A stretch of 64,000 nt of DNA, taken from contig CDROCS010000453.1 of NCBI GenBank assembly GCA_977020255.1, positions 1 to 64,000 on the forward strand, in the 5' to 3' direction. Positions within the stretch are counted from its first letter, which is position 1. Every line of letters begins with the position of its first letter. The notes beneath the pieces were generated by a model. It searched no databases. It was not told the origin of the DNA and saw nothing but the letters and a program-made list of their open reading frames with translations. Source of the stretch: Obrimoposthia wandeli (Eukaryota). Both the position numbers and the translations under genes were made by a program. Below are positions 4 to 38,595 of the stretch, piece after piece.

Positions 4-1234
4 CAGTACAAGTCTGAGTTACCCCCAAAATTGTAAGTTGTTTTGCTTTATTCAACAACAAAAAATTAATAAAAAAACTAAAATTCTAAACATTTACTTT
101 ATTCAATTAAAAAAGTTTTAAAAAAATCTTCATTACCTCGGCCAAAATAATCACCAGAGGAACTCATTAAGAAATTCATTCCCTTTAATTCCCCAAGACA
201 CTTTTTTCCTTAATAGCTAGTTTTAATTGTTAGACCAAAACTCTCAACACCACTTTCCAGATTCACGAAATGGTATTTGTGACACAGTTCGATGTTCGAA
301 CCCAGTAATACTTCCAAGGGTTTTATAACTAGCAAATTCATAAGTATGGATGATACTACCATGTCTTACAGCCTTGGAAATAATGGGAATGATTGTGGTT
401 TTGGTTTTGTTCGGTAACAAACAACAAAAACCTTTGGCTGGGGTCGTAGGTGTATCAACAATATGCAACACCCATGTTTGGCTTCTTGGAGCTCTTCCTC
501 CACAGGCTTTAACTGTATGGTTAACCATCACTTCATCAATCTGGCAATACAGCCTGGCCCATCGAGCATGATTGGACTTTTCATGAAATGTGTATCTATT
601 TGTTTATTAAAAACATTCCTTAATTTTCAGAATTGAATGTCTTGCCATTCCAACATAGTTTCAATTTCAATAAATTTTAGTTTGTTACAAAGGTGTCCTA
701 AAACTACTATAATGTTCTTCAAGGTTTTTGAACATAAAAAAAAACGAATTAGTTTTATACTCCTGGTTGTTGAAATTTCATACATCTAGGGATTAAGAAA
801 CCTCCCAATTGCATCAATGCAATTATCTTTGGCGTGTTTCAATATCATAAGAACTTCACAATACTTACAGGACATATTCACTTTTTATTAAACCTAGTGT
901 CATTGCAAACTGAACGATTTCTCGTTTTGTGACCTTTCTACCTTGGATAAAAATTCATGTAAAACATTTTTTTAAAATAATTTTTAAATCGAATATATAT
1001 AAATCAAATACAAACCAACTCCTGTTTAAACCTCCGGATTTATCCAGCCGTAAAACTAACTAACTAACTAACTAAATATTCATTTTCTTTTTAATATTTA
1101 TATTTTATAAAAAAGTGTATTTTTTCTGTTGTTTAGTTTATTTCTTTATTTGCAAAAATACCATCGAGTTATACCCCAATAAAAGATACAAGTCTGAGTT
1201 ACCCCCAAGTGGGGGAGTAACTCGAACTTGGTCC
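4..1234 (-). mobile_element. Merlin (IS1016/IS1595-like) DNA transposon relic with degenerate DDE transposase
   Basis: Minus-strand translation across frameshifts (~130-570) reads LDGPGC..QIDE..VNHTVK..GRAPRSQTWV...LPNKTKTTIIPIISKAVRHGSIIHT(Y)EFASYKTL...EHRTV and later RGIK...NEFLW. This follows the Merlin pattern (GGxGxxVEIDES, WVFG, NRTxxTLxxII, GSxIHTD). Motif TACAAGTCTGAGTTACCCCCAA occurs at 7-28 and 1187-1208, with a degenerate inverted copy at 1211-1234. Confidence 0.8.
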
Positions 1235-1974
1235 AAAATGTCAGCCAGGTCCTATGCCCTTGGCCTCAATACCTCCAATTTTAACGTGATAACCAAATGG
1301 CAATTACAGTTTTTAAGTATTCTAAAATAAAAAGTAAATACTCGATTAAATTTGTGGTGAAAAATCCTGTTGTTAGTACAATTTACCGAACAAAACTACA
1401 GGAATGTAATCAAATTGTTAATTTAATTTTGTTAGAAAATAGTAACCACTTCATATTGTGATATTCCTAATTTAAATAGTTAACGACTTCAATTGAACAA
1501 AATCACATAGTTTCAAATTTTCTAGTAGCAATAACTCAGTTGTTTTTCTGTTTCGCCTAGGCTTCATGATTATCAGTGCGCAATCATACATACATAGAAA
1601 GATTAATCCCATATTGCCTGATGTTCTGGGTTAGGTCTTCTAACAGTTAATCCGATTTTAATATTTCATAAGTCATTGAAATAAAAAGTAGGAGAGGGAA
1701 AACTAAACTTACTTTAAATGCAAAATTCCATGTTTAGTTCTTCTCCATTGAAATGAATTAAATTTCATTGTTGACAAATTATCCTAAATTTTATAGAATA
1801 AATAATCCGTCTATTCACTGGGAGATAAATAACGGGGTTCATCCTTTCAATGAATAGTATTCTATTCTTTCGAAACCATCCTGACCATAAAATATATAAA
1901 TTATGTATTTTTTTTCTCTAAACTACTGTTAATAAACGGTAGATGAAGAAGTAATTTTTATTCAGGTAACAAAC

Positions 1975-2069
1975 AATAATCAATTTCCGTTAGGTTTTCA
2001 GGCAATAATATGTAGTTGTAATAATCAATTTCCGTTAGGTTTTCAGGCAATAATATGTAGTGTAATAAT
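1975..2069. repeat. Tandem duplication, 45-bp unit x2
   Basis: AATAATCAATTTCCGTTAGGTTTTCAGGCAATAATATGTAGT(T)GT repeated head to tail, with one indel. Confidence 0.95.
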
Positions 2070-2154
2070 TCTTCGTTATCTAAATATTATGGTTTTTAAT
2101 CAAATTAAAATAGTGTGATCCAATTCACAAAATCAGTCCTTTAAATTGAATTTC

Positions 2155-2864
2155 TGTAGACAGATTCAACTATCCTGATCTGTTCAGAGATACAGCGAAG
2201 GGGAAAATCGAATGGCACAGTGCGGTAGACAGTTGAGGAAAAACGATTTCAGCAGTCAGACAGAGAAATCAACATGATTTGATAATAATAACTTTCTGTT
2301 TCTGGCTTTTTATTATTATTTGTAGTTTTGTCGTATATATATTCATTTAGTAGTGTGCAGCTTAAATATCTATCTGCTGCACATACTGGATAGATCTGGG
2401 CAGAGAGGAGAAGAACCGGATATTTCGGCTCTGCACACACTCACATGTGCAACCGGGGAAAATCCACCGCCCGTCGAACTCTGGCCAGGCGGTAAAAGTT
2501 TAATTTAAACACACACCCACCTGTGCACAATGGATAAGTAAGTGAGTGAGTAGGGAGAGTGAGTGAACAAGGGATTGAGTGAGCGATTGAGTGAGAAAAG
2601 GAGAGTGAGGAGTGAGTTGAGTGATGTCTGCTGTGTGAGTGTGTGTGTTGAAATGTGTACTTGCGCACACCAACAACATATGTCGACGATATTCGTCGGC
2701 ACATGAAAGGGGAATCTTTTCCCTGCTTTTTATTATTGTTGCCCTGGCTTCGCGGAATCCACCGCGAAGTTAGAGATAACAAGCCATCTCCCTGATGAGT
2801 ACCGGCAGGGCGAAACGGGCTTTTTCCCGTCGGAGATTGAATAGACAAAATGCCAAAGTGCACA
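2155..2864 (-). repeat. Putative 3' LTR (~710 bp)
   Basis: A GC-richer block bounded by TGT...ACA, lying downstream (on the minus strand) of the element's last ORF and a purine-rich tract (~2925-2975). It contains AATAAA-like signals on the minus strand, a CACT/GAGT microsatellite-like tract and several hairpins. It is unpaired, so LTR status is an inference. Confidence 0.5.
2786..2837 (+). ncRNA. Hammerhead ribozyme, type I topology
   Basis: ATCTCC [stem I] CTGATGA [core, 2792-2798] GTACC-GGCA-GG-GC [stem II] GAAA CGGG-CTTTTT-CCCG [stem III] TC [cleavage after C2831] GGAGAT [stem I']. All conserved core nucleotides are present. Confidence 0.88.
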
Positions 2865-3156
2865 TTTTAAAATCGGAACTTTTCCCTAATTAAGGAAAGT
2901 TCCCAATTAATTTTCAATTAATTAATTCCTTTTTACCTTTTCTTTTTTTAAAAATTTTTTCTTTTTCTTTTTATTTTTTAAACAAATAGCTAATATATTT
3001 TTCCAACAATCCTCCGGGTCATAAAAGTCTCTGTCCTCAGAATCATAATTTTTATCTTAATTATTAGTTAAACTATTTTGTCTTGTTTCTATTGTTACCT
3101 AGTGTTGTTTGTATGTTATAACTGATCAATGTTTTATTAATCACAATCATGTCTGG

Positions 3157-4197
3157 TTAAATATCGTTAAAATTTAGACAAGAATGAAAACAGAAATAAA
3201 ATAATAACAATACTACATAATCCAACAAAATCGGGGAGTTTTGTGTACCGGACTCCGAGTTTCCGGTCTTATGCGAGAACGATGAACTGGGGTTGTTCTC
3301 GCTAGATGGTGGATTCATCACCTCGGTCAAATCAAACTCTCTATTCAACATTTCCTCCTTCATTATGAAAATTTTTCGGGTGTGATTTGCATCTTCCATG
3401 CTAGTGTGGACTCCTTTTTGTGTTTCTATATTTAAGGTATTTCCGCACCATGTTGGCGAGTCCAATATTTGGGTGATTGTGATTTAGTTCTGATTTTATG
3501 CTTTTGGATATTCCTAAATCAACAATGTTGAATAGCATCCATTTCTGTAGGCGTAAAGCTTTTAAATCGTTTGTTAGTCCCACACCTACGATGATGTTAC
3601 CATACACAATGTTTTTTACTTCCTCAATTACTTCATCAGCATCTCTACATCCTTGTAACTTTCTATCTGACAGTCCAGTTATTCTAGTAACGTAATTTCT
3701 TACTCTGTTTCTAGATTACGCACAGTGTATCTATAATTACGTTACCTATGTAATATTATAATAGAAACACTTGCTAAAACTGGCTGTTTATCTACTGATA
3801 TCACCATTTCGCAATCGAGGAATAAAATTGCTGGTTTCTGTGCGTTTTTTTTCAAAAAGACTATTTGTTGAGGTTCTTCTGCTTTTCTTATTTTTTCTAT
3901 AAATAATAGATTTGGTCTCTTCCTATTTTTATGCTATATTGATTTTCTAATTGAGCTGCTTGTAAGGTGTAGGTGTGATTTCCTATCATCAGAAAGTTTA
4001 ATGTCTTATCTGATTTGGTTTTTAAATGCTACTCCTAGTGCCACGTGAATATCTATTTTTTCACAATTAATGTTGGGGAATATTCATACTGAGAGCCATA
4101 TGGGTTGGTCTTTTTCATTGGAAAAAATAAGTGCGCTAGTTCTTTCTTCTGTGGTAATTTTTAACTTATTAGGAAGAAATGTTTGATTTGAAAACAT
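3157..4197 (-). pseudogene. DEDDh 3'-5' exonuclease (REXO4/ISG20/REX family) with a ~120-aa N-terminal extension, frameshifted
   Basis: ExoI ILFLDCEMV (D 3814-3816, E 3808-3810). The middle reads VRNYVTRITGLSDRKLQGCRDADEVIEEVKNIVYGNIIVGVGLTNDLKAL (ExoII D ~3566-3568). ExoIII HTSMEDANHTRKIF lies at ~3370-3408. This parallels the REXO4 pattern ALDCEMV / DYRTxVSGI / GHxLxNDLKVL / HxSxQDA. ATG at 4197. Confidence 0.85.
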
Positions 4198-4556
4198 TTT
4201 CTTCCTCCGTTGTTTCTAAAGTATGCAATGCTAAACTGACGCATCTTTTGATACAGAGAATTTTGCTAATAACCACCTTTCTGGCATATTTTCCGTTTTT
4301 CCTCTTTCTATTTTTGCTGTGCTTTTTGTTTGATCTGACCGAGTGAGCTGGTCTGGAGTCGTATCAGGTGATTGCGATTATCCATTCTGCTTTAATCAAT
4401 TTTAAAGTAGTTGAATAAAATAATATAATTATTTCACAGTCTTAAAGTTATAAAAATATCAGTCTTATCCATGCAGTATGTGGGATTTGTCATGAAAATA
4501 AACTTATTAACAAAAGTTAGACAATTTGTACAAAAAGAAGGATGTATGATTATAGT

Positions 4557-4952: not shown

Positions 4953-5304
4953 TTTTATATCTAAAAATAACCATTATTAAATTTCAGGATGCGTTTCCTG
5001 GTGATTTTATTTTAATATTATTTCATTAAATCGTCTTTAAAAATATATATATATCAAATTTTTATTCTATTTCCTAATTAATTTAGATTTACATAATAGT
5101 ACTAACATTTTTTGTTACTTAAACGGTTTTATTTAAAAAAGATTTGATTATTGTGTTATATTTCTTTTTCTATTTTCTATTACAGTATTTATGGATAATT
5201 CTGAAGAATTCTCATCCTTGGGAATAATATAAATAGTAAAAGGGCCTAGGACCCACAAAAGTGTTTTCGTTGTTTTGTTTCTATCATTTTTGTATGTTTC
5301 AAAA

Positions 5305-6420
5305 TTAACATTTTCCATGATATTTAAATGTATAGTGATTTATAAATGTAATCATTTCGATTACTATAACTATTATTATAAGTTCTTTTTTATTTTCATT
5401 CCTTGAATGTTCTTGTTTACTATAGTGCATTTTTAAACTTTCATTAAATGATTTATAGGATATTATTTCTGTTGTTTTTAATTTTAATTTAATTCTTATT
5501 TTTTCCGTAATTTCAACTTGATTTGTAACTCTGTAAATTTTTGATGTAAATGTTGTGGTATGTAGCAATTGTTTTGTGGTTATATCTTTAACATATTTCT
5601 TAATTTTTACTGCTGACCAACGACCACAAAAAATTGTAGGTTGATATAGTTTGGATATCTTATTTCCTAAAATTGTTAATTTTGTTAGATTTTTATAACT
5701 TTCAAACTTTTGACTCCATTGTCAGTACATTATTGGTTTATTAGTGATTACGCATTCTCTATTGTCTATTATTATTTTCTCTGGATATCTAATATTATCT
5801 ATTGTTAAATTTGTTTTATTTTGTGTATTTTCTAATTGTTTTCTGAGTCTTTCCAAAAATTAGCATTGTGTCCTCTATATCTAATTCTAATGAGGGCTTT
5901 ATCTAAGTCATCTATTTTTAGTTGAAATTCCCATTTTATCATTATTTTATGTTTTGATATATATTTTGCTGTTGTTTTTTAATATTGATGCTAGGTATAT
6001 GTGAGTTTCTATAATTCTTTCATAGGTGTTATATTTTTTAATTTCGACTTAATTCTTATTTTATATTGTGTTTCTGTTCTTAAAAATGGTATTGTATATT
6101 TTTGTGATTTTATTCCTGAAATAATTATATTTTATTTTCTATCTGTTTGTGTGATTTGCACATTTCCTGTTTTGTTTGTAAGAAGAGAAATATTTAACTT
6201 TATTGATGTGATTTTAGGTATTATTGTTATTAATCCAAAATTTTTTATGAGATGAGTTGTTGAGTCGTATTTATTTGTTTGTTGCTGTATGATTGATTGA
6301 TTTTCATTTATGTTTGTTGCGTTTGTTTTCAGTAGGTTATATTTTATTATAAAATATATTATCAATAACATCATTATTTTACCAATTTCTTTTATTGATA
6401 TTTTATTGTATTTCTGGTTT
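5305..6420 (-). pseudogene. Second membrane-protein ORF downstream of integrase: signal-like segment, FN3-like ectodomain, C-terminal TM
   Basis: KISIKEIGKIMMLLIIYFIIKYNLLKTNA (basic then hydrophobic). The ectodomain includes SQKYTIPFLRTETQYKIRIKS and IKWEFQLKIDDLDKALIRIRYRGHNANFWK (FN3-like strand patterns) and several N-glycosylation sequons. TM segment ELIIIVIVIEMITFI at ~5335-5385. Several frameshifts and stops. Confidence 0.5.
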
Positions 6421-8660
6421 GATGACTCAAAATAGTTTTATTTTGTTTTTGTGAGTTTTTTATTGTCAACATTTGTAGTACTGTTGTATCTTTAGTTGGT
6501 CTTATGTTATATTTGTGACTTTTTACTGTATTCTCCTCAGGTATTTCTCGACATCTGTTTATATGTGCTCTTATTTCTTTTGATTTTGGTTCATTATCTA
6601 GTTTAGCTGTTATGTTGGTTCCGTTGGTACTAATGACTGTATATGTTCCTTTGTATGACTTTGATAATTTGTGAGACAATCCTACATTAATTTGTGGATT
6701 GTGAATCATCACTTTACTTCCGCTTTTTATATTTGATGGCTTAGTTCTTCTATCCTAATATTCTTTGTAATTTTCTTGTATGTTTTTTACAAATAGTTTA
6801 GCTTTTTCGAATGCTAGTTTTATTCTTTCTCTAATTTCTATTTTATATTCAGGTATTTCTAAATATTGTGTAGTAGGTTGTAGTAATGTTAGGTCAATAG
6901 GCATTTGAGGATCTCTGAGGAACATAAGATAAAAAGGTGTTTCTCCTGTGGATGCATGTACTGATGTTCTATATGCAAAAAGGCATGGAGGTATGTGTAA
7001 ATCCCAATCTGTTTGATTGTTGTTTGTGTATGATGCCATCATATCTTCGAGGGTTCTATTAAATCTTTCTACTAACCCGTCAGTTTGAGAGGTTATATGG
7101 TGTTGTATTGATCTTTTTATGTGAAAAATTTCAGCTATTGACGCTAATACATTATTTATAAATTCAGGACCTTTGTCGGTTAATAATTTTCGGGGTGCAC
7201 CGAAAGTAAAAATAATTTTTTCGACTAAAACCTTCGCGATGGTTTCAGCCTTATGATCATGTGTTGGAAAAGCCTCTGGCCATCTTGTAAAATAATCAGA
7301 AAATACTATTATATATCGATTTCCTCGGGGTGTTTCAGGTAATGGTCCCATTACATCCATGGCAACAGTTTCCATGGGGGCCGATGGATAAGGCATTGGC
7401 TTTAAAGGTACTTTTGTGGTACGTAAAGTATTTTTCCGTTTAAGACATATTTCACATGTTTTACACCAATTTTTCACATCTTCCTTCATGTCAATCCAAT
7501 AGTATTTTAAATTTAATCGTGAATGTGTCTTTTTTGATGATAAATGTCCTCCTAGGGCTCCATTATGATATTGAAGAAGTAATTGACACTGAATTTCTTT
7601 AGGAATAACTAGTGAATATAGATATTTGTCATTTAAATAATATAATATTTCATTACTATACTTGTATCGTGATTCGTGAATTTTTAAATGTTTTCTTAAT
7701 TTTTCATCTGTTGGTACTTCGTTTGTGCTAATGTATTTAGTTATTTGCTGAATTTCATTATCTTTGCTTTGAAGTTTAGTAATTACTTTTTCATCATATT
7801 TAGCTTGAATTATTGTAAAAAGATTTAATTCGATGTCGTTTGCAGTTATTTCGTTTATTTCTTCTCTTATTCGTGATAGACAATCTGCATTAGCGTTAGA
7901 TTTTCCTTTTCTATATTTTATTTCAATATCATATTTTTGTAAAATCAATGCCCATCTCATTAATCTAGATGTTGTATCCTTATGATTTAAAAGCCATTGT
8001 AATGGTCTTTGATCTGTGTAAACATAAACCTTTCGACCTAATAAGTAATGTTTAAAATGTTCCATTGCGAAACAAATAGCTAGGCATTCTCTTTCTATCG
8101 TTGAGTAATTCTTTTCATGTTTTTTAAGACCTCTGCTCGCATATGCTATCACATGATCTTTTTCGTTATTTTCCTGTTGTCCTAAAACTGCTCCTAACGC
8201 ATAACCACTGTCGTCAGTCATAACTAAAAATGAGTTATTAAAATTAGGATATCTAAGTATAGGTTTTTCGATTAATTTTTGTTTTAAATATTCATAAGAT
8301 TCTTGTTGTTCTTTTTCCCATTCAAATTTTTCATCTTTTTTAATAAGTTTATTTAATGGTATTGCTATTTGTGCGAAATTTCTAATAAATCTTCGATAAT
8401 ATCCTGCAAGCCCTAAAAATTCCTGTATATTTTTTACTGTTTTTGGGATTGGAAAATTTTTAATCTTTTCTACATTACTCTCGTCTGGTTGTATTCCTTT
8501 TGCTGATACAGCATGTCCTAAGTAATTTACTTTATCTTTTATCCATTCACATTTCTTTGGTTTTAGTTTTAATCCTGCTACCTGTAATCTTAAGAATACG
8601 TTTTCTAAATCTTTTAAATGTTCTTCAAAATTTTTTGAAAAAATAAGAATGTCGTCGATA
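6392..8660 (-). pseudogene. pol: Pol, 3' part: RT C-terminal half, RNase H, integrase with GPY/F module
   Basis: IDDILIFSKNFEEHL...KLKPKKC...YLGH...FLGLAGYYRRFI (RT). FLVMTDDSGYALGAVL, YSTIERECLAI and YTDQRPL (RH). HHCC zinc finger, VAMDVMGP, LLTDKGPEF and DGLVERFNRTL (IN). After a premature TAG at ~6755, KLSKSYKGTYTV (GPY/F). Confidence 0.95.
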
Positions 8661-8662
8661 TA

Positions 8663-10218
8663 TAATATACGTCAAAATTAATGCACATTTTGTTAAAAAA
8701 AATAAAAATATGATTTTATAATTATAAGTATATTTTAATTTCAAATTTTATCAAGAAATTTTATTATATGTAACTTATTAAAGTTATTAAATAATTATTA
8801 GTAGTTATATAATAATATTTCATTTAATAATTTTAGGTTATTTGTTTCACTATAATCTGAATGACGTCATAAAAAACGCACAATTCAAATTATTAGGTAT
8901 TATTGCATATCTTTATAATTAATCATATTTATTATAGGTCAAATTGAAATTAACCATGTCGAAACAATTGACAAAAGAAGAAACTAATGCTATAATTAAT
9001 TTGGTAAACGAGGGGCGCACGTTTACACATATCGGTTTAATCTTTGGTAGGAGCCATACTACCATTTCAAGATTGGTTCAAAGATTAAATAATCCAAATT
9101 ATATGGATGAAAAGAAGAGAGTCGAAAACAGAAGCTTACAAGGTTTCAAAAGCATGGTAAAGCGAATTACGAATCACGAGCCATTCCTGAGTGCGAATGA
9201 TGTAAGAAGAGCTAATCTGACCGATATCATATCAATTCGATCAATGCAGCGTTACCTCAACAGAATGAAACTTTTTGGGCGCATAGCTAAAAGGATTAAT
9301 CTCCAAACTAAAGCATCGCGAAAGAAACGAATAGACTTTTGTAAAAGTGTCAACAATTGGAATTTAGATACTTGGAAAAATATAAATTTCTGATGAAGGT
9401 ACGATTCGAATTAGAATCTAAAAGAATAATGTATGTTAGGAGACCCATTGGGCTAAGAAATCGTTTAAAATATTGCATAAAATTTCGTTATCAGGAGAAA
9501 AGGCATTATGTTCTGGGGTTGTATTTGTTCTGACGGCAGGAGAATAATTGTACTACTGGATCTGGATTAATAGCATTTCTTAAATTTATTAAATGAACAT
9601 TATTTATATGATTTTGGTAATAATATAATGCTTCAAGATATCAGTCATACATCTCTATACGAGGCAATTCTTTAATAACCACAATATAAGAATAGTTGAA
9701 AATTACCCTCAAGATCTCCAGACATTAATGTGATTGAATGTTTGGAGCATTGTAAAACTCAGTTAGAAAGAGATATCCAAGAAATTTAATTCACTTGAAA
9801 GCAATTGTAAATGAAGAATTCCATAATGTTTCTCTAAATGTAATTGATAAATTATATAAAAGTCTACCATTGAGAATTGCTACAATTTTATCAAATAAAG
9901 GTGAATAAGTATTAATATATATTGATTTTCATTGTTGTATTATGTAAATTTTGTAATATATGTAATTGCATAATTCATTTTTGTTATTTATAAAGTTTTG
10001 TGCGTTTTTTATGACGTCATTCAGATTATAGTGAAACAAATAACCTAAAATTATTAAATGAAATATTATTATATAACTACTAATAATTATTTAATAACTT
10101 TATTAAGTTACATATAATAAAATTTCTTGATAAAATTTGAAAATAAAATATACTTATAATTATAAAATCATATTTTTATTTTTTTTAACAAAATGTGCAT
10201 TAATTTTGGCGTATACTA
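8663..10218 (+). mobile_element. Tc1-family DNA transposon with ~220-bp TIRs and TA target duplication, inserted in the RT
   Basis: Near-perfect inverted repeats at 8663-8882 and 9999-10218, with TA at 8661-8662 and 10219-10220. The frameshifted transposase (8944-~9910) has an HTH region, then F(S)DEG, MFWGCI and SPDINVIE. Removing the element restores GTA ATG GTA TAT ATC GAC GAC (VMVYIDD). Confidence 0.95.
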
Positions 10219-10220
10219 TA

Positions 10221-11490
10221 TACCATTACGTGATCTGCATCCATTAAAATATGGCTCATACATCTCTGAAATGTTGCTGGAGCTCCGGTTAATCCAAATG
10301 GTAAGACATTGAATTCATACAATCCTTCTCCTGTTGAGAAAGCTGTTTTATATTTATCTGACTCCTCAATTTCTATTTGCCAGTATCCACTCTGTAAATC
10401 TAAAGTTGTAAATACTTGTGCATTTTTCAGTTTGTCTAATATTTCATCAATTCTTGGCAGTGGATAAGTATCTTTGTGAGTGACTTCGTTTAGTTTTCTG
10501 TAATCTACGCAAAATCTCAAAGAACCATCTTTCTTTTTTACTAAAACGACAGGTGATGTCCATGCAGAAAAACTTCTTCTAACAATTTCATTTCTAACAT
10601 TCCTTTTATTTGTCTTTGAGCCTCATCTCTGTAGGCATATGGAATTCGGTAGGGTCGTTGTTTTATTGCGGTGTTTGTTGTTAACGGAAGATTATGTTTT
10701 ATCAAATTTGTTCGACCTAAATCGTATTCATTTTTAGCAAATATTACATCATATTTTTCTGTTAAAGTTTTAAGTTTTGATTTTTCATAATCATTTAATT
10801 TAATATCGTTAAAATTTATCGTAGATTTATCTTCTATTTTTTCATTATCTATTAATTCAATATTTTCAATAACACTTATTTTTCCAAGACGTACTCCTTC
10901 CTTGAGATGAATTTCATTAATGTCTGCATTTAGGATTCTGATTGGTATTGTGTTGTTTTTTATTTTACAAATTATATTTGCAAAACGTAGTTCAAGGTTT
11001 CTTGTTGATATTTATAAGGCTCAAATAATACATCTTTTCTGTGATTATGTTAGTTTCTAGTTGTAACATTGTTTCTGTTCTTGGTTGGAGAATGATATCT
11101 CCTTTTATTTCTAACTCGTATTCATCTTTGGCGTTAGATCTGTAAATGTATTTTATTTGATTTTTCAAAATCAAAGTGGAAATTATTTCCTAATCTTCTT
11201 AATGTATCTATTCCTATGATCATTTGGCAAGGACAATTTTTCATTATTCTTGTAGGTAATTTTATGAATTTATATCCTATTTTAAAAAGACAGTCTAATT
11301 TTCTTATTATATCTACGGGTTGACCGTTTGCTGCTGTGACTTGACTATTTTCCTTAAGAAGAAGTAATTTTTTGTTGTGTTTTAAGAAAGATTCGTCTAA
11401 AACTGTTACGCTTGATCCTGTGTCAATTATAAGCTTTAAGTTTATATTCGTTAATTTCTACCTTTACATATGGTCGTTTATCGTTATCTT
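10221..11490 (-). pseudogene. pol: Pol, 5' part: aspartic protease, spacer, RT N-terminal half
   Basis: KRPYVKVEINEYKLKA(fs)IIDTGSSVTVLD (protease, DTG ~11417-11425). Then KQRPYRIPY, SPVVLVKKKDGSLRFCVDYRKLN, YPLPRIDE, LDLQSGYWQI, KTAF and FNVLPFGLTGAPATFQR. Confidence 0.95.
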
Positions 11491-11669
11491 TTGATTTATT
11501 GTATATATTGTTGGTGCAGTTGATTTTTGTATAGTTGTTTTATCTATATATTTTTCTAAATCAGGATATTGTGAAGATTCCGTTTTTTCTGTTTCTTTGG
11601 TACTTGTAATTTTTTGTATATTTGTTTCTCGCATTTCATTTGATAATGTGTTTACTATGTTTTGATGAT

Positions 11670-13544
11670 GATTAAAAATAAGGAATTTTGCCAAAAATGG
11701 GAAACATCCTAAGATTAATTTCCATGTTAATCCTCCAACTTTATAAATATAATATGTTGATAAAATTTGACTTAGAAGAATCTTAAACAAATTAATAGAG
11801 CATATATTCCAACTAATCCAGAAAATGCTTGTCCAAAAATTAAAAATTTACCCCATATTTTTGACATGGTGTTTTTAGTGGCTTTTATAAAATGATTTGG
11901 AGAAAGTAATAAGTCGTAATCGGGACGGCTAATTCCGTCAGGTACTGATCTTTCTATGATTTGTGTTAAAATTCTGGATCTTATTTGTGGAAATAAAATT
12001 TATTTTCTTAACTTATCTATATCTTCCTGTATATAAATTCCTTTTTGTGTTTAATTCGTTATCTGATTGTATATTGATGTCGTTGCTGAGAGTGGTTAAT
12101 TGTAATTTTTGTGGTTCTGCGACAATATCTCTTCTTGGAAGTGAAATCCAAATATCTTTTGAAATTTGATAATGAAGTGCCATTATGTTTGAGCAGTTTA
12201 TTTCTTTTATGCTAAAAGTGTTAAAAAGTATAAATTTAGTGATTGGTTCTACAAATAATGAATTATTTTTGTAAGAAATTGGTAATTCTTTTGTACATTT
12301 TTGATGATTTCTTATGTTAACTATTACTTTTTTACATTGATAAGTGTATAACACTTCTCCCATTACTCTTCCAAAAGTACCGTCAGCTAATGGTAATAAT
12401 GGTGTTATTAATTCTGGGTTAGTTGCAATAATTGCCAATTTCGTTTTTAATATTTCCTGATTTAATTTACAATCATTCATTATAGTTTCTCTATATATTG
12501 CTTCTATTGTCATTAGTCCTTTGTGATAAAAATAATCTAATTTATTGTTAAAATAATCATAATTTTTAATATCAAATTTAGTTGGTGTCGTTTTTGCATT
12601 ATGTATTTTTTCATTACTTAAATATATTCCTTTATATTTAGTTGTATAAAGAGAGTGTCCACATCGGGATTCCTCTTTCTTTTTAATAAATCGCATTCCT
12701 GAACCTTGTTCAATAGACATTAATATAGTTGGAGTTGGTGTTTTACGTATTTTTCTAGTTCTATATATTTTGTGTATGTCCTTTGGAATTTGTTGATCTA
12801 GTTCCGGATCATCTCTAAATCTTTTTCCTTGAATTATTTGAAAAGTTTCTGATTTTAAATGTATTAATTTACATTGATCGATTTTTACTTTGTAGTAAAG
12901 TATTGAAGAACCCGTGTTACAGTGACCTATGTTTGCTTCACAAAATGGCATTGTTACCATTGTGTTTGTAGAAGGGTCGAATGTTGCTTTGAAAGTTCTT
13001 AGTTCGACTTCAAAATTTTTAATAACTACTAAACCACTTTGCTTAACTCCCATTACTACATAAGTTCCTGTTGTACATTCTCCATCAGATTTAATCGTAC
13101 CTACAACTGATATCATTTGTTGAATTATTTTATTTTTCGCCGCTCGGACTTTAATTTCTCTATCTATTCTCCTGTTGCGAAAGCATCTTTACTATTAAAA
13201 GCGTCAACTATTATTGGTGTTTTTCCTAATGCTGGTTTTACTATTGAATTGTGACTATGTTGTCCACAATATGTTATAAATGTCTCTACATGTACTCTAC
13301 ATTCGAAAACTTCTGCATATATGAAATCTGTTTCCTGATATACTTGATATAACTTAGTATTTTGGATTTTTACCTCATTTGGGTCAGCGTCTGCACATTG
13401 CTGTAAATCCATTAAAGAATATTTATTTTGGATTTTATATTTTGAACAATCATATGCTTCTAAAGCATTAATTGGTTTTATCATGTTCATAATTAGACAT
13501 ATTATTAATATTATCTGAATAATTTTCCATAATTTTTTCATCAT
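11670..13544 (-). pseudogene. env: Envelope glycoprotein, chuvirus-G / herpesvirus gB-like class III fusion protein type, located between gag and protease
   Basis: Signal-like MMKKLWKIIQIILIICLIMNMIKPINA, then AYDC...SLMDLQQC, FECRVHVETFITYCGQHSH, VGTIKSDGEC, C..NIGHC, CKL....LKTKLAI..TNP, GEVLYTYQCKKVIV..R...CTKELPISY....FVEPIT and C......YQI...W. The membrane region is WGKFLIFGQAFSGLVGIYALL. The cysteine spacing matches my recollection of chuvirus-type G proteins. Frameshifts at ~13164, ~12013 and ~11790. Confidence 0.8.
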
Positions 13545-15350
13545 TTTATTAAGATTATTTGTATGGTTAAAAATTTTAGTTTTTTGATTTTCTATTGTTT
13601 TACGATTTTTCTTGTGTTTTACTTTCTTTTCTTGTGTTTGAGTAGTTTGGTTTGTTTTTGTGATTGTATATTTATTTTTTTGTAATGTCAAACAACCATC
13701 TCTAAACATGTCTCCAAATTCGGATTGTAAGTTTGTTCTATCTGTTTGTGGTTCACTGTTATGGCATTGTTGGTGTATTTCTCTGTAACGATTATCCATT
13801 TCTTTAAGTCGTAATTTTAACAATGCTAATTCGTCTGTGTTTGGAGTTGTTTCTGTATTTTCTATAGTGTGAATAGGGTTTCTTGGGGTATATTGTTGAT
13901 CTTGAGTACTGAATTGTACTGTTTTTTGAACTTGTGGTTGCTGTTTTATTATTGTGTTTCCAAATTGATTCATCATTGTGTTTAATTTTCCACAGTCATC
14001 GGTGTTGTGATTTTTCATATTACAAATCTTACAAAATTTTGTATCATTATTAAAATATCTATTTTGATTATTGTCATAATTATTTGGTTTATTGAAGTTA
14101 TTATTCCTTGGTAGTGTATTATTACTCTGTCTATTTATTAATTTTCTACAAGTTTCAATTGTGTGATTGTCTTTTTTGCAAAATCTGCAAAATTTTATGT
14201 TACTTAATTTTCGACAATTTTCTATTGTATGGTTTTGGAGTCCACAATTTGTGCATTTTTGAAAAGATCTTTGTGTAAATTGTGAGTATGCAAAATTTCT
14301 GTTTGTCTGGTTTCTATAAAATTTATTTATTGGCGGTCTAAATTGTTGAGGATTTTGAAAATTATATTGAGTATCTTGGTTAAAATTCCTAGATTGGTTG
14401 TAGTTTCGTGGCATTTCTATTTTTTCAAAAGATAATGCTGAAACTTGGGTTTGCTGTATCATATTCAGTCTTGCTTCTACTAGTTGAGCTTTTCCTATAG
14501 CCTGTTGAAAGTTTTCTACTTCTAGTAATGCAGGGTGATCTCTAATTTTGTTATTTAATCCATGTAAAAATTGATGTAAAAGTAATCGTTCTCTTTGTGC
14601 TTCTTCTATTTCGGGAAAAGATTTTAATGCAAGTCGTCGTAATTCGACTGCGAATATATTTGTGGGTTCCCCTACATGTTGCTCTCGTTGTCTAAATTGA
14701 TTTAAGTAGTTCTGGTCGGACTGTGCTCCTAAAACCATATTTTGGAAATGCTGGACTAAGTGTTCCCATGTGTCTTTTTGCAGATTTATTAGTCCTCTAT
14801 AAATGGTTAGGGCAGTGCCTTTTAGGTATGCTGGAAAAACTTTAAGTTTTTCTAGGTCTGTCCATTCGAATGCTTGAGCAAAAGAATCATATCTATTCAA
14901 GAATTCTGGTAAAGATGATTTATCGCCATTAAATGCGTCTAGTGGTATGTTTAATCTATGATTTGCCATTTGAGGTACTTCGTTTATTTGTTCGTTATTT
15001 ATTTCTATGTTAGGTGGTACTGGTTCTGCCACTGTTTCTGATTTTTCTGACGAGTTGTCTGAGTCAGATGTTTGTGGTAAGGATAAACTTTCTGTATCTG
15101 AATTTGATGTTAGGTTTTGGTTTTCAGAGTCGGTTGAAATTAAGCGATCCGTGTGTTGGTGAACTAACGTAGTTTCAGGGAAAAATTCGTTATTTGTTCT
15201 AAAATTTATCTGGGATTTAGGTCTCTGTGGTAGTGTTTCGCTTGTGTTAGTTCTTACCAATCTAGTCTGAATGCGTCTCCAGTGAAGATTAGCACTACGT
15301 TTAGATTTTGAAATCTTTGTGTATTGTTCACTATTATCCTGCGTACTGGG
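13545..15350 (-). CDS. gag: Gag with three CX2CX4HX4C zinc knuckles, in the same ORF as the env signal peptide
   Basis: Capsid-like region (FNGDKSSLPEFLNRY..FAQAFEWTD..KL..FPAYLKGTA...YAVELRRLA-like FAVELRRLA...QFLHGL). Knuckles CTNCGLQNHTIENC, CRFCKKDNHTIETC and CKICNMKNHNTDDC at ~13990-14255. The frame is open from ~15360 to 13164; the true start codon is not recovered. Confidence 0.9.
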
Positions 15351-16419: not shown

Positions 16420-19400
16420 ATCTGTTAAGGTCCCGAAACGGAGATTTTATCAAATTTAAATTGGCTATATTTATAGTACTGCCCAAGGTAATTTTAGGAA
16501 CCTGGAAAATTAAAATTAAATAAAAAATCTAAATTGAAAAGGGAAAATTATCAAAAAAACAAGAATTAAATAACTGCATGTTGAGAAATGGAGGAGTTAA
16601 TTAACCTCAGGTGATCTCTAACTCTATTATTAATATAGTCACCAGAGGCAATAAAAAGAACGAATTGTAGTAGCCGAGTGACTCAACATTTCTAGTAGGA
16701 CGGTGTTTGAAGGCAGTGTGTCGACAGAAATCTGCAACTTCCAGAATTTAAAGAGCCTAATTGGTCTACAAATTTTATAAAAGAAGAAACGCGATTTGAC
16801 TTCAACACAAATTTATATCGACAGAAGAACATTGTCGTTAAGATCGATGACAAAATTATATCGAGAGATAAAAGAAAATACTATTAATCATCAATCGACA
16901 AGTGACAAGAAGCCCTCATTGACACAAATTTTTATAAAACTACATCAACATAATATTATTTAAACTAAACTAAATTTTAATAACCTGTACTGGTAACAAT
17001 TTTCATATAGTTAAAATCACTGACCAGTAACGGTCACTGCCTTGTCTATGTCCAAAGCCCGTCAGTAGGATTAGGAACAAGCACACATATATAGCTGGAG
17101 TTGTGATGCTGTTTGTATAACAAAATTATTGAAGTGACATTTATAAACAGTTTTAGTATTGTACCAAACAACCCAATCGCTTTATTATAACATTTTTATC
17201 GACCTGTCATTAGTGGAATATCTTATCAAAGCGATTTGCGTTATATACTTTGACCATTTAGAAGATAAGTAGATATATGTTGTGAGGCACATAACCACAG
17301 AAAATAACTCAGTAATCAATAGTGAGCAAAACATAACCGTATAATACCCTATGATATAAATTACCCTTCAGACGTATTGAAACAATGCAGGTAGACCTTC
17401 CACACAAGTCCTATAATTCCTAAGAATTCGCGCATCAGAGGGTTCCCTAAGAAGTGAAACAACTTTGGTTCCAACACACCAAGCATTCTAATAATGAAAA
17501 TATTATATATAAAACTTACAGTTATTTAAAAGTGTTAGGATGAAGAAAAAGAAAAAGAATAAATTGGTTATTTATAGTAGATGAATAACCTTCATACTTA
17601 AGGTTACAAAAGAATAAAATAAAAATTATAAATTATCTACAAACAAAATAAAATTAAACTGTAAAACTACGACCTTGATAGGCCATGAAAATGAGTATAT
17701 AAGTGTAAAAACAATGTAAAAAAGGGCGGGGAAACAAAAGTAAGTTGAAGTCGACGAGAAAAAATGACAACATCTTAGCGAATCAAGACAGTAAAGTAAG
17801 TCAATTGTGAAGATATTCACATAGTTAATCCTGATCAACCTGTCAGGAAGTCACATCGAGCGTATCCGGCTGCTCGTACATAGCTGGGAATTCGAACACC
17901 AGTACGAGTAAATATAAAAAGGTGAACGTAATAATTAATTTACTAGTTAGTAGGTGACAACTGAGCGCTTCGTACCAGGACGAATTGGAATCGGAATTTT
18001 ATAGACAAGGAAGTGACAACTGAGCACTTCATACCAGTGTTGATAATAATAAATATAGTAAAAAACTGTGTGAACTCAACTTCTAATGTTGTCCCACGAA
18101 TTAAATCGACTCCCGGTTGAGAGCGACTGAGCTACAGTTTGAGGCTAAGACATCATCTAGTTAGATGTAGATCTGTATTCCGGTTATCGGAAATAGTAGA
18201 AGTAGAACAGATTTGTCAGGCTTAATTTTACCCAATTTCTTGGTCTAGACTTAGTCAGACTATTTTTGAAGTTAAAATCACATTCGATCTAACCGGCTAA
18301 TTAATACAGACCTACATTATATTGTTAGGATTAGGATTTTTAATATTTTTTGAAAATAATTAGTTATTAATAAAGAAATTAAAACCTTGAAAGTAAGGTT
18401 AAAATAAAATAAAATTGAAATATAATTTAAAATTAAATATAATAAAATCATCAAGTATTTTAGGAACTTGAATATGTCAAGTGTTTAATGCGTTGTATAT
18501 AAGGGAAAGTTTAGGGCTCCAACGGGACAAAAGTAATTAAGCCACCTAAGAGAAGAGAAGAAGAGAAATTAAGAAGAAAATCAACAGTCAACAGAATAAG
18601 AGTAATTAAGAAGAAAATCAACAGAATCTCCAGTAGCACTTACTTAGGTCGTGTTCAGGACAATTCCATTAGTGCCACTTAGCGCCACTACACGTTCTCC
18701 AGAACAACAAGAAAACACTGCGAACCAACTGCCGATAGCCAGACTGAAAGGTGAGTGCACATAAACTAAGTGCAAATTAATTGTTTTATTTAGACCTATA
18801 AAAGAAAAGATACTTACCCCAAAAGCACAGAGTTGCTGAGAAAAGGAGAGCTAATTTTAAAAGAAGAATTACTTACACCAAAGACAGATTGCGGAAAAAT
18901 GAAGATTTTATTATAAATTTGTTGAATTCAAAGATTAAATGAAGATTTGTTCATAAAAAAAGATTGTGAAATCAACAAACGCGCCGAGAAAAAGGTGAGA
19001 TAGATAAACGAGTTCTCTCATTGTAGAATCGATAAAAATAAGGCAAATTAAAGAAGTTATAATTTTACTTTTCAGATAGACGTGCCAAGAAAAAAGGTGA
19101 GAACGAGAAAGATTTTGAATTAAACTAAAATATACTGAAAGAGTTTGAATTTTAAAGTGAGAACGAAAATGATTTTGAATTAAACCGATTTTGAATTAAA
19201 CTAAAAGATACTGAAAGATTTTGAATTTTAAAGCGAGAACTAAAAGATAAATTGCGTTTTATATAAAAGATATTTTGCGTTGATTTAAAGATTTTTGCGT
19301 TTCAATTAAAAGATAATTTGCGTTTTGACTAAAAGAAATTGTAATTTGAAATAAAGAGTATAGAACTCGTAAATTTGTTAGACCGATTAAAATCGATACG

Positions 19401-19940
19401 CTAAGACATCGTCCGTTTTTGTGACGTTTGTTGCAGTAGTTAGGACTAATTGTTGTAATTTTTAGGAACCTAGTTGGAGTGAGATTAAAGAATAAAGTTT
19501 TCCTACAATTAAGAAATGTTTAGTTGAAAAAACCCCTACAACCAGGCAAATACCAACTCTCCATACATTATACCACAATTAGGGAAGTTTTCCAGTACTC
19601 CGTGCACACAACTCTTTACACATCTCCACAACACAGATTGAAAACAAAACCTTCAGATAAGAAATTGAGACAGGTAAGAAGATTTAAATAGGCCACGAAC
19701 AACTGCAAGCCCTTTTGCTATAGAACTCACGTTGGGGGCCTCCATACGACGATCTATCTAGTAGTTTAATATAGAAACCCCAACAATATCACAATAGTTT
19801 TTTATGGATATCACAGTTAATTGTACACTTACATTCCACAATACACCTTCAGAAAGATTCAATTATGTAGGCCTAGTATATCAGAAAGACCTATTGATAT
19901 AGGACTCCCGTTGGGGGCCTCCATACGAGGATTCTAGATA
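16420..19940 (+). repeat. Unclassified repeat-like segment, A-rich on the plus strand, with internal sub-repeats
   Basis: Duplicated motifs: GACAACTGAGC(G/A)CTTC(G/A)TACCAG (~17956 and ~18015), ATTAAGAAGAAAATCAACAG x2 (~18568 and ~18606), GATTTTGAATTAAAC repeats, and a 34-bp duplication at ~19720 and ~19899. No recognisable ORF. Confidence 0.35.
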
Positions 19941-20587
19941 GAAATTTATCCGACTTTTATTTTGTAATTATTTTCCTTATGACGACTTTCTTTCTAACGC
20001 TTTTTCTCTTTAACTACTTTTATGTCTTTTATGTTGGACTTTAGTAAGATGAAGTCTATTGTAATTTAAAAAAGGTTAAAACAAATTCAGGATGGACTCA
20101 TTAATCTATTCGCAGACAAAAATTGGAAAATATTTTCAATTACCTCATTTTTTAAAGAATCTACTGACAAAATACACAAAATTCCAAAGTCCAAAATATC
20201 ACAAAAGACAGTGAATAATAACTAAATGATAAATAACACAAACGAATGTACAAAAATAGCAAATCTCTTCATTTTTTACAAATGAGAAAATGGAAAACAT
20301 CAACACAGTTACATGGAAATTCAATTTCCAACTCTGATGGCCTTAGCCACCCCTCCTTCGGTTAGTCAGGCTCTGATTAGTCAAAGCCTGCTAACCAATC
20401 ATGGTGCCGAAAATGTGTGTCATGAATGGCTGAGCTGCAGCAGATGAAATTTGCAGATTGACCTTGACCGGCAGTGTCTCCATGTCTCTGGAATTGCCTG
20501 ATTCTCGGATCGAGCCGTCGCCCCGGTTGTACTCTTCATCTCCGTCACTCAACCTACGTTAATTCTCTGTGTGACCTTGTCGTCATT

Positions 20588-20939
20588 ATGGAAGCAGAGC
20601 TCAAGTGCCCGCACTGTTCACTTTGGTTTCGGCGCTCATTGCTGTTGCCATGTGGGCACAGTGTCTGTCATCAGTGTGCAATGGAGCTCACCAGTGACTC
20701 GGTTGTCCCAAGCAATCCGGTTACTATGACAACCACAGCCACTGTGGCCATGGCAACCGCGACAGCCACATCCAGTGAGCCGGACTCTGACCACCTCAGC
20801 GAGACCAGTGAAGCAGATTCCGGTGTCGTTGTCAGCAGCCATGGAGGCGCTCCCAACAATAGCTCCCTAGCAACGACTACTGCAGCCCCAACAACTACCC
20901 CACAGTCAGCGTCAGTCGGCTCAGCAGCTTCCACTACAG
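20588..20939 (+). CDS. TRIM9: TRIM9/TRIM67-like E3 ligase, coding exon 1 (RING N-terminal half)
   Basis: MEAELKCPHCSLWFRRSLLLPCGHSVCHQCA...SEADSG, matching TRIM9 LKCPVC..LPCSHNLC..CA..SEADSG. Donor CAG|GTGCGT is phase 1, consistent with exon 2. TRIM9 versus TRIM67 is not resolvable here. Confidence 0.88.
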
Positions 20940-22149
20940 GTGCGTCACCCCAGCAAAAAGGAGAGAACAAAACGTATAGATTCAATCTGTTACTTTAACC
21001 ATTTTTAATTAAAAAAAACTGAATACATGCCAAGTATTCGCGAAATAATGATCTTTTCCATTTTTCTATTTGGTAAATTAACATCGAATTATTAATTCAT
21101 AAATGTGATGATAATACTTAAGCAAAATTAAGTAATAATTGTATGACAATGTGTTTTAATAAATTGAAAAAGTTAACTGGTTTCATATGTTTTGTAAAAT
21201 GCTTTTGGAATTGCTTAACTGGGTTTCTATTGTGCTTCGAATAAAATATCTACGATTTATTGGTTCTACGTTATACTAAATCAATGATACACTTACTTTG
21301 TTTTGTACGTAGAAATACTTTCAATCATTACGGGGTGATTTTAAACTTATTTTAGTATTTAATTATATTTTTAAATTTAAAACTGTATCAAAAGTAAAAT
21401 TTAATTTAAGAATTTATACAGTATTGGTAAATTTAATAAAGACAAACCCTATTGATATATTCGACATCATATCTAACAACATTGTAAAATAGTTTGACTA
21501 ACCCAGGATTAGCCGAAATCTTATCTATCTTGCAAATATCTATTATGCGGGAAAACTTGGTTGAAAATGTAAAAATTTAACAGATCAGCAGCTCATGTCC
21601 AGAGTAATTTATTATTAGAATCCGGATGTTAAAGTCCAGAAATTCCCTACCAATGACTCATAAGAAGTAAGCAGCAAAAGGTAGCACACTAATATGAAGT
21701 ACATTTATTTAATTAATTTAATGCAAATTTATAAATACAGTGTATTTTTTCATAATATTTTTTTTATTCAAAGCGGATCTATTAGTCTGAGACTTATATT
21801 CATTCAGCGTCGATTTAGACATTTAAGGAGAAACACAAGTTCCTTAATATGGCACTGGGTATATCGAGAAAAATGCATTGCTGTATTTATTTACTTTGAG
21901 AAGTAATGAATACAACCAATTTCTACTTATACATTACCCATCTTTACTAATTACTACTGTCATCAGCATTTACAATATATAATTAATATTTAGTTTTTTT
22001 TCAGAAATCGGTAAAATAGCGTATTCGTCATCAAAATTGTTTCCTGAATTTATTTAATGTCAGATATAACTTATTTTTACACAAAACGTTACTTAAAGTA
22101 TAGTTGGACTATTTAAACACTTTAAAATGTTTATGCATTATGTTTGTAG

Positions 22150-36141: not shown

Positions 36142-38595
36142 GTAAGTCCTATCATATAAATCAATAAAATTATGTTTGTTTTAATAAAAAAAAGTGCAGC
36201 AGAAATTTCTTATCTTAATATCAAATATTTGTGGAGATTGGTAAATGTACTAAATAGTTTAAGAATCATCCGTATGTTATGTTAGCAAGTTTCGAATGAT
36301 TACAGGACAGATAAAAATCTTCAATTCCAGCACAGAAACATCGTGAAGCAGACACAAAGAAGAATTTCTAATATTATAAAAATAGTTTTGAACAAAAGAG
36401 CTTATGTAAATCTCTTTAGTGGAAGTTTAATAGTTTTCTGAATGTGTTTTGATTGTTGGATTACGACTTTGGGATTGAAGATTATAACAAACAGTCTGTA
36501 ATTTGTGTTTAACATTAACAAAAATCCGGAATAAATTATTTAGAGAACCCCATTGTAAAGTGACCGAATCTATGAATCGTGTACCGACGCATATTGCAAC
36601 ATTCAGCTTAAATTTGTAGCCCGTGTGATTTTCTCATCCAAAATTTCACATCTAATATCAATTGTATATAAATTTATTTTGATCAATCTTTAACTTTGAA
36701 GTCAATAATATATATTTGTTTTTATTTAAAAACCACCCCAAGATAAAGGATTCGAAAAATATTTGGCATCAGAAAAAATAGTATTTGAAATCAAATTAAA
36801 CAATTATTTTATTAAAATAGACTTGACAAAAAGTTATGGGTTCACTGATGTAAAATCATCTACAAATGATGATCAAAATTTTCAATTTTTTTAAAGTTCT
36901 AAATTTAAAATTTATTTATTTTTTAGGAAAAGCAAAATATTTTAGCAGAAACATCGCAGTTGCACATAAAGTGATAGTCTTAGATTTTTCGAAGAATAGT
37001 TGGGAGAAAATATAAATATATTTTAATATGTACTCGAAGTGTATAGAGGAATGGAAAATATCTATGTTTAATGAAATGTAATAATATAAAAACAAAATGA
37101 AAAAATTCCGATTGGATTTTCAATATGAATAGTTTAGTTTCAGAAAACAGAAAATATGTGATGTGGTGAGGATTTAAGTTTGGTTAAGAGTACTACACTT
37201 AATCCAACTGAATGGTGCTATTGTCAAATTCACGACATGGAACCTAGGATATAAGAATTAAACTTATAATAATACATAGTAAAACCTAATAATGAAATCA
37301 TTATTACTAAATCAATTATTACAAATTTTAGAAAAATATTTATTCGGATGAAAATTTATGTAAATAAAATTTAATATTGCACATAAATAAGTTTAAAACT
37401 TATTTTAATTGTAGAAAGGTTTATTAATAAACTTTTACAAATTGATTTAGAATTTTTGTAAAGTTGCTTTTGTTACTTATACGTTTGATAACGACAAATT
37501 ATCGTCTTAGATGTTAGGATTTTTGTACTATAAGTGAGAAGCTAATTTTCATCAAGCATAATAAATAGCTAAACGGTGTAAATGGAATTATTTTAATTAC
37601 TTAAGTCATTTACGTTTTGAAATAATAACATCAAATACACGATTTAACACTTAGGTGTCTATATGTGGTTGATTCCTCACAAATCCATATTAACTCGAAT
37701 TTATGTGATGCAGGAATATTCTATACATTCACTGAGAGTCGTCTGTTGATTTCTCAGAATCATATAATTTGACTTTTACTTCAAAATTAATAAATTCTTC
37801 AAATAACTTGTTTTATTGTGTTTTTTGAATAATTAGAAAATATTTGAATTCAAGTTTGACTATTTTGTTGTCTAAATTAGGATTACTTTTAAACATACCA
37901 GTATTGGCTTTTTATATCTGGTCAGAAAAGAAGTAAAACCAACTTATATATTTGAAATTTATATGGAATTACTATTTATAACAAAATATTATAATTATTT
38001 CCTAGATTTTTTTTTCTTTATTCCCATAAGGAGTAAATCTAAAAATAACTTTTATTGGAGATAAATACACGACATGGATTGAACAGAATTACACTAGAAT
38101 TATTTAAAATTAAGATTTATTTAAAAAAAGAAACTGTTCATGCATCCATGTGGCAAAATTGATGTAGAAAAACCTTAATTAATAAGATGTTGTTCCATTC
38201 GATATTTCATTCCAAACTGAAAATAATGAATGCATTCTTTTGTTAAATTAACACTGCAAACGCTTTGTAAAATGCGATAATTTAAATTACATGAATTAAA
38301 ACATGTAATAAAACATAAAATATTTTTATTTTTGAAGAGTAAATCTAAATTGTTAAGAAAAGAGCTTTTTATGTGGATCCTTTTATAATTTGACATATTA
38401 AGGTGCAATTTAGTTTTTTCTTCTAATATCGATAAAACTTAATGGTGTCAATAAAACATTCATGTTTTTAATAAAATTTATTGTTTCCCACATTTCTATG
38501 ATTTCTAAGACTATTTACTACATTTCTATGGAGACTAAATGAGGTGAAAATTTAAAAATAGGCTTTGAGAGGCCAATAAAAATATATTTCAATTA

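Follow-up and report, generated by a model that had tools for sequence, protein, structure and literature searches.

Ribozymes described so far in retroelements, namely those of R2, Penelope elements and retrozymes, process the element's own sense RNA. A 64,000-nt stretch of the Obrimoposthia wandeli genome (contig CDROCS010000453.1, positions 1 to 64,000; hereafter the window) raises the question of whether a retrotransposon can also maintain a ribozyme against RNA of the opposite polarity, as an earlier note, made from the sequence alone, had proposed that an env-bearing gypsy element carries an antisense hammerhead in its LTR. Answering it requires that the motif be a genuine hammerhead, that its host be identified and that its orientation be the same across copies; only then can the possible roles of antisense cleavage be weighed.

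The hammerhead motif and its host element

Sequence inspection placed a type I hammerhead at 2786-2837 on the plus strand, with predicted cleavage between 2831 and 2832 (Table 1). The CUGANGA / GAAA / NUH core, the three-way junction and the open stem I were all present, and the motif was the sole match to a hammerhead pattern search of the whole window. The earlier claim of an intact core with three stems and a GUC cleavage site after 2831 was borne out by the sequence, by a match to Rfam Hammerhead_1 (RF00163) and by the covariation described below. The Rfam check itself was mixed, with a match at E 4.7e-4 (1.5-kb scan) but a score of 27.2 bits, under the gathering score of 34 bits; a scan of the whole window at the gathering score reported no hammerhead, and the hammerheads of sister copies were not reported by Rfam at E<=1 in a 60-kb scan. 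No second, sense-strand ribozyme was found by Rfam in the window LTR. Self-cleavage is the predicted, and likely, activity of this motif.

Table 1. Features of the ribozyme, its LTR and its host element in the window.
Feature	Position	Strand	Evidence
Half of 4-bp target-site duplication	1923..1926		both halves in flank-sharing copy on contig C806
3' LTR, family A, 1,082 bp, TG...CA on minus strand	1927..3008	-	sister LTR pairs, end motifs
Upstream hairpin, includes 8-bp stem and GAGAT	2737..2781	+	copy comparison, folding
GCC, predicted tertiary contact with loop II GGC (2804-2806)	2783..2785	+	pairing across 21 variants
Type I hammerhead motif, antisense, presumed U3	2786..2837	+	Rfam RF00163, covariation, copy comparison, folding
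Stem I	2786-2791/2832-2837	+	sequence
Core CUGAUGA	2792-2798	+	sequence
Stem II, loop GGCA at 2804-2807	2799-2811	+	sequence
GAAA	2812-2815	+	sequence
Stem III, 5 bp	2815-2819/2826-2830	+	sequence
GUC	last base 2831	+	sequence
Conserved U after stem I	2838	+
Polypurine tract (PPT), short, directly before 3' LTR	3009..3018	-	same sequence in sister elements
DEDDh 3'-5' exonuclease gene (ISG20/REXO4/SDN1-like), frameshifted here	3225..4392, approximate limits	-	Pfam PF01612/PF00929, PDB
Extra ORF after integrase, hydrophobic N-terminus, broken here	5170..6400, approximate limits	-
pol: RT end, RNase H, integrase	6755..8671	-	Pfam RVT_1, RT_RNaseH, Integrase_H2C2, rve
Tc1-like DNA transposon inside RT, 225-nt inverted repeats	8659..10222	+
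Protease and RT start, several frames	10200..11457	-	Pfam aspartyl protease, RVT_1
Fusion glycoprotein (Monjiviricetes_fusion), between gag and protease	11464..13515	-	PF24664, E 1.9e-35 and 3.4e-16
gag: Arc-like capsid, CCHC knuckles	13965..14975	-	PDB dArc1 E 1.8e-4, nucleocapsid matches

The host of the ribozyme is a coding Ty3/Gypsy element on the minus strand, designated family A, with gag, a fusion glycoprotein, pol and an ISG20-like exonuclease gene. The Ty3/Gypsy domain order PR-RT-RH-IN is present in pol (Pfam), and the exonuclease matched ISG20 (E 2.7e-8), ISG20L2 and SDN1 in the PDB, with its catalytic motifs aligned. No protein family was found for the extra ORF at 5170..6400(-). 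In the window copy, gag and the start of the glycoprotein share one 732-aa frame, and frames of 1,525 and 1,728 aa span later gene junctions in sister copies. The window copy is broken by frameshifts, by the Tc1-like insertion and by the loss of its 5' LTR: similarity to sister elements stops at 15553, and no 5' LTR was found within this window. While the element breaks off from 15554 onward without a 5' LTR, a copy on contig C806 with the same left flank has one, a difference that may reflect rearrangement or assembly. The Tc1-like transposon (8659-10222) also occurs in the C806 copy, there with another insertion.

A search with 2100-2950 returned 2,813 candidates, and among the 40 scored, many formed same-strand pairs 8-14 kb apart. 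LTR pairs, 94-99% identical, were found in all eight family-A sister elements fetched, and 15 of the 16 LTRs of these elements matched a strict hammerhead expression. The sister LTR pairs and the end motifs place the LTR at 1927-3008, instead of the 2155-2864 originally proposed. A 4-bp target-site duplication (TSD) was seen in 8 of 12 elements, both ends having been displayed for 8 of the 12. A tRNA-type primer binding site (PBS), TGGTGAGC(C/T)CG (TGGTGAGCYCG), follows the 5' LTR in 10 of the 12 elements examined, and in sister elements the PPT sequence at 3009..3018 stands ahead of the 3' LTR but not ahead of the 5' LTR. Domain order, termini, PBS, PPT and TSD all identify the family-A element as Ty3/Gypsy; coding elements of the ribozyme clade measure 12-14 kb. 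The sole tRNA match to the PBS lay within a bacterial-looking tRNA cluster and was rejected as a candidate. Contig G000:C1622, on which a Ser-Pro-Arg tRNA cluster of bacterial look was seen (120360-120630), is a possible contaminant.

Within the LTR, the ribozyme sits 172-223 nt inside the start. Because TATA-like boxes of other LTR types were found at positions 540-800, about 330-650 nt further in than the ribozyme, the ribozyme site is presumed to be U3. A promoter scan with a sigma-70 model was uninformative, since a bacterial model was set against a eukaryotic host.

Elsewhere in the window, a fragment of an IS1595/ISXO2-like transposase was found at 244-603(-) (Pfam PF12762, E 5e-6) and a host exon with an N-terminal RING finger at 20468-20998(+), which we take to recall TRIM9/TRIM67. 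The stretch 38543-39515 is open in all six frames and is probably a repeat.

Conservation, copy number and polarity

Covariation across LTR copies was examined in an alignment of 21 LTR variants, which comprised the window copy and variants chosen as intact representatives and whose rows are related. The core was invariant except at position 7, where U, C or A occurred; position 7 is free in true hammerheads. The non-conserved core that would have spoken against a ribozyme was therefore not what these variants show. Bases were paired in 94.9% of 355 cells, and 11 of the 17 pairs, taken over stems I-III and the loop II contact, had changed on both sides in a compensatory manner (5 of 6 in stem I, 1 of 3 in stem II and 3 of 5 in stem III). 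Slid controls paired in 28-47% of cells, and none of 500 shuffles reached the observed pairing, a count which, given related and hand-picked rows, is not a probability. The predicted contact between GCC and the GGC of loop II was paired in 92% of cells across the 21 variants, and in variant J both sides of this contact were altered in a compensatory fashion (GUC/GAC). G-U cells numbered 28 and A-C cells 7, an excess pointing to selection on the hammerhead strand. G+C-containing 10-mers found in at least three LTR types fell within the ribozyme or between the ribozyme and the LTR start, with the exception of one short central motif.

Genome-wide, the hammerhead pattern gave 8,178 matches (3,987 + 4,191, including a few overlapping double counts) versus 15 (7 + 8) for the reversed pattern, and this difference, together with the covariation, excludes a chance origin. 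The matches represent many LTR types with differing stems. Family A alone accounts for at least 1,527 LTR ribozyme sites; in the first 100 of these listed, the core was changed in 8 and doubtful in 2, as counted by eye. Polarity was assessed with the first 30 loci of an unbiased list, from which one duplicate was dropped, and with a loose LTR start motif. The ribozyme was antisense and near the LTR start in all 29 loci, the LTR start motif lying 60-200 nt downstream on the ribozyme strand in 29/29, compared with 7/29 for the sense arrangement and 8/29 for a control window. The gene order and antisense ribozyme of family A recurred in five paired elements, belonging to types B, C and D. An antisense hammerhead in the LTR of an env-bearing gypsy thus holds for eight family-A elements, five sister-family elements and 29 of 29 sampled loci. 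The hammerhead is real, under selection and clade-wide, and its arrangement is apparently undescribed.

The window copy is itself not a typical representative. Its stem II carries a change at 2800-2801 that was absent from 29 other aligned loci, and likewise from the first 100 listed of the at least 1,527 family-A copies. In the window copy the predicted hammerhead fold lies 2.9 kcal/mol above the minimum-energy fold, but for a sister copy the hammerhead is itself the minimum-energy fold; the ribozyme of the window copy, with its weakened stem II, is therefore probably impaired. In four contig runs of one sample covering 2640-3060, most of the depth at 2800 was without the extra base of the window copy, and this stem II variant may be an assembly error.

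Just upstream, the 8-bp hairpin (2748-2755/2762-2769) and the GAGAT (2773-2777) pointed out in the earlier note are both present, but the folding switch assigned to GAGAT did not survive comparison among copies. In sister copies GAGAT forms the 3' side of a hairpin about 18-19 bp long, whose outer arm is damaged in the window copy, and GAGAT is kept in families D, I and K though unable to pair with their stem I. A role of GAGAT as a conserved stem I competitor was therefore rejected; it belongs to a long family hairpin. Similar upstream hairpins occur in LTR types D, I, K, M, P and G, and the hairpin could also form, or act, on the other (sense) strand.

Known relatives and a sister lineage without the ribozyme

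Plant LTR retrozymes resemble the present elements in having a hammerhead in each LTR and a Ty3/Gypsy-type PBS, PPT and 4-bp TSD (PMC4918200). They are described there, however, as non-coding, 1-2 kb in length and carrying a type III ribozyme on the PBS strand, whereas the elements studied here are 12-14 kb, encode gag, env, pol and an exonuclease, and carry a type I ribozyme on the opposite strand. With Penelope-like elements, Terminons and animal non-LTR retrozymes they share the type I topology and thousands of copies per animal genome (PMC4209133, PMC7229834, PMC7761336, bioRxiv 2026.07.22.740005). Unlike that group as characterised in these sources, they lack tandem 170-400 nt units and pseudo-LTRs, and have a full-size ribozyme with stem III and loop II contact, true TG...CA LTRs and an integrase-type pol in place of a telomerase-like RT with GIY-YIG. 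The ribozyme-bearing element is neither a retrozyme nor a Penelope element, and the independent repeat of either type that the earlier note had named as its alternative did not materialise.

The arrangement of the glycoprotein has precedents. An env between gag and pol was described previously for planarian Burro elements (PMC6431247), and Burro/GYPSM1, like family A, combines multiple CCHC knuckles and accessory ORFs with a mononegavirus-like fusion glycoprotein that lies in frame after gag and before protease (PMC6431247). Going by the description of Burro, family A differs in its exonuclease ORF and in being half the size; it measures 12-14 kb, as opposed to more than 30 kb, and has none of the BCL2, BIR or ankyrin domains, and the accessible text makes no mention of a ribozyme in Burro LTRs (PMC6431247). 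In Anakin, a BEL/Pao element with a chuvirus glycoprotein, a glycoprotein of the same Pfam class has been captured by an LTR element of another superfamily and host group, again with no ribozyme mentioned in the accessible text (PMC7642597). PMC6338049 mentions LTR elements with exonuclease accessory domains, and PMC13159263, in the part available, speaks of hammerheads for Penelope elements only. Troyka was rejected as a match, as its termini, so far as described in PMC12440569, do not fit. In the literature searched, no hammerhead was reported in a coding LTR retrotransposon and none in antisense, though supplements or Repbase might list a case.

A second env-bearing lineage, Z/Y, is informative as an outgroup. 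Its pol is about 50% and its glycoprotein 42-44% identical to those of family A, and its LTRs are different. A tree of the RNase H region grouped families A, C and D together (100/100), apart from Z/Y; the references in this tree are mostly unnamed gypsy-like proteins. No exonuclease and no LTR hammerhead were found in the two Z/Y elements examined, nor a hammerhead by Rfam on either strand of one further Z LTR. The most divergent ribozymes, those of type G, are found either in solo LTRs or in LTRs that follow the exonuclease gene. Ribozyme and exonuclease thus co-occur and mark one clade, on the evidence of one outgroup lineage. The ribozyme is retained beside exonuclease alleles just 37-47% identical. 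Two earlier assignments were dropped: a Z lineage without pol, as other Z copies carry pol, and the G-type LTR as a member of Z/Y, 20 more loci having turned out to hold either solo LTRs or 3' LTRs that follow the exonuclease gene.

Several further observations concern these lineages. Z/Y elements (G000:C2184:314900-338300 and C3684) are high-copy, about 21-23 kb and Burro-like, with a different PBS, and their gene order is gag-glycoprotein-RING-protease-pol with a dual-specificity phosphatase domain; they resemble Burro, as described, more closely than family A does (PMC6431247). Short matches to Z/Y LTRs (75-77%) at 18317-18502 and 19641-19786 of the window are probably an older related LTR. 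The ribozyme clade is a mosaic: pol is about 87-92% identical among families, while the elements carry exonuclease alleles (37-93%) and LTR types in shuffled combinations, perhaps as the outcome of an arms race or of the swapping of modules.

Viral, protein and metagenome searches beyond this genome turned up no relative with DNA context, and the ribozyme-bearing LTR clade is known from one genome. Viral contigs yielded no relatives of the glycoprotein, and a near-length protein search yielded none of the exonuclease at E<=1e-3; Atlas matches scored below 0.9 and are leads only. Most of the 19 loci given by a metagenome scan were prokaryote- or phage-like and rich in G+C, and none of those listed had a gypsy match. 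Most of these prokaryote- or phage-like hammerheads have loop I UGAUGCC and the same GGCA loop II, and several share the stem II of families A and D. In the metagenome and viral-contig hammerheads loop I is closed (type III), whereas in the LTR motif it is opened into 5' GCC and 3' UGA. The likeness may reflect convergence or common origin.

Possible roles of antisense cleavage

Because a ribozyme can work only on RNA that has its own polarity, it would follow from the covariation that this clade has been selected for cutting antisense RNA. Antisense LTR transcription and the risk of dsRNA have been described for HTLV, IAP and micropia (PMC7264820), and the two consequences suggested in the earlier note, limitation of dsRNA and definition of an antisense 5' end, are the leading options.

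The first of these, for which we see the chances as about evenly divided, is that antisense or read-through RNA would be cut, and hence uncapped, just before entering the element body, and would thereby be neutralised. Such RNA could be supplied by an LTR promoter that fires divergently or by host read-through, and the hammerhead would cut these backward transcripts 75-180 nt before they exit the LTR, with the upstream hairpin possibly insulating folding and the GCC/loop II contact possibly speeding cleavage. At the 3' LTR the antisense element body would lose its cap, and the ribozyme of the second LTR would remove its tail; transcripts running outward from the 5' LTR into host DNA would be uncapped. 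Uncapped 5'-OH RNA may be poorly exported or processed, with less dsRNA, siRNA and piRNA directed against the element, and the neighbouring RNA exonuclease may work in the same direction. A more elaborate version, which we put forward tentatively and regard as somewhat doubtful, is a two-part counter-defence in which antisense ribozymes at both ends would sever backward host transcripts, including piRNA-cluster precursors, and the ISG20/SDN1-like exonuclease would act on fragments or small RNAs.

Cutting need not destroy the antisense RNA, because in a human reporter Pol II continued past hammerhead cleavage, and the downstream RNA with its 5'-OH end persisted and supported translation from an IRES (PMC2702688). 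This persistence, together with hairpins at the new 5' end, makes production of antisense RNA the main rival: the ribozyme would generate either a non-coding RNA, stable and uncapped, that comes from the 3' LTR, or a unit-length and maybe circularised antisense RNA, and this product would regulate copy number or the timing of expression of the element. In LTR types B, C, E, H, J, P, M3 and G, the new 5' end has a potential pairing partner 17-20 nt past the cut, so that a hairpin can close over it (among 22 variants, 8 have ACCUCC downstream as a partner for the first six post-cut bases, and in variant G the partner is GCCGC). This pairing may stabilise the product; it would also be in competition with stem I and could promote release of the product. 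Structured 5'-OH ends resist Rat1/Xrn2 (PMC2702688), paired hammerheads release circular RNAs in retrozymes (PMC4918200), and non-coding antisense RNAs are known in micropia (PMC7264820). The partner for the 5'-end hairpin is, however, missing from families A, D, K and O, a circle of 12-14 kb would be far larger than retrozyme circles, its PBS would be of a polarity unsuited to tRNA priming, and comparison of LTR types revealed no conserved antisense TATA box. We consider this reading rather improbable, while still a serious one.

That the motif is instead a passenger, whether a captured fragment of a retrozyme or Penelope element or the by-product of a sense signal or ORF, with cleavage unselected, appears very unlikely. 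Type I hammerheads are indeed typical of Penelope elements and animal retrozymes (PMC7229834), and a stop-free sense frame of 170-180 codons overlaps the motif in families A and C. Against this stand the compensatory changes in the stems, the invariance of the unpaired core and the excess of G-U cells on the hammerhead strand, and no tandem or Penelope context was found in the loci examined. Motif lengths cover every class modulo 3, so the reading frame is not maintained and the conservation is not explained by an overlapping sense frame.

Slightly less probable again is that reverse transcription uses the 5' cleavage product, which is complementary to the U3 of genomic RNA, as an alternative primer or other aid. 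The geometry would suit, as the 3' end of the product would anneal near the 3' end of genomic RNA, but the 5' product of a hammerhead ends in a cyclic phosphate, 10 of 12 elements have a tRNA-type PBS, and normal TG...CA ends with 4-bp TSDs are made. Least credible is cap-independent translation of an antisense protein, for although type I hammerheads in the viral 5'-UTR promote translation in chrysoviruses (PMC13725137), the first post-cut AUG ORFs have 3-9 codons, no conserved ORF follows the cut (longest 35-96 aa within 2.5 kb at 14 sites, none common between families), and downstream of 5' and solo LTRs lies arbitrary host DNA.

A hammerhead selected opposite the genes of a coding LTR retrotransposon would indicate that antisense RNA matters for the fitness of the element. 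Antisense LTR hammerheads would also offer a direct test of the idea that insertions read through in antisense provide hosts with small-RNA immunity. Thousands of these motifs are missed at standard Rfam thresholds, and other invertebrate LTR families may therefore hide them. If the two-part counter-defence were true, about 8,000 dispersed LTRs would be strand-specific RNA cutters shaping the host transcriptome.
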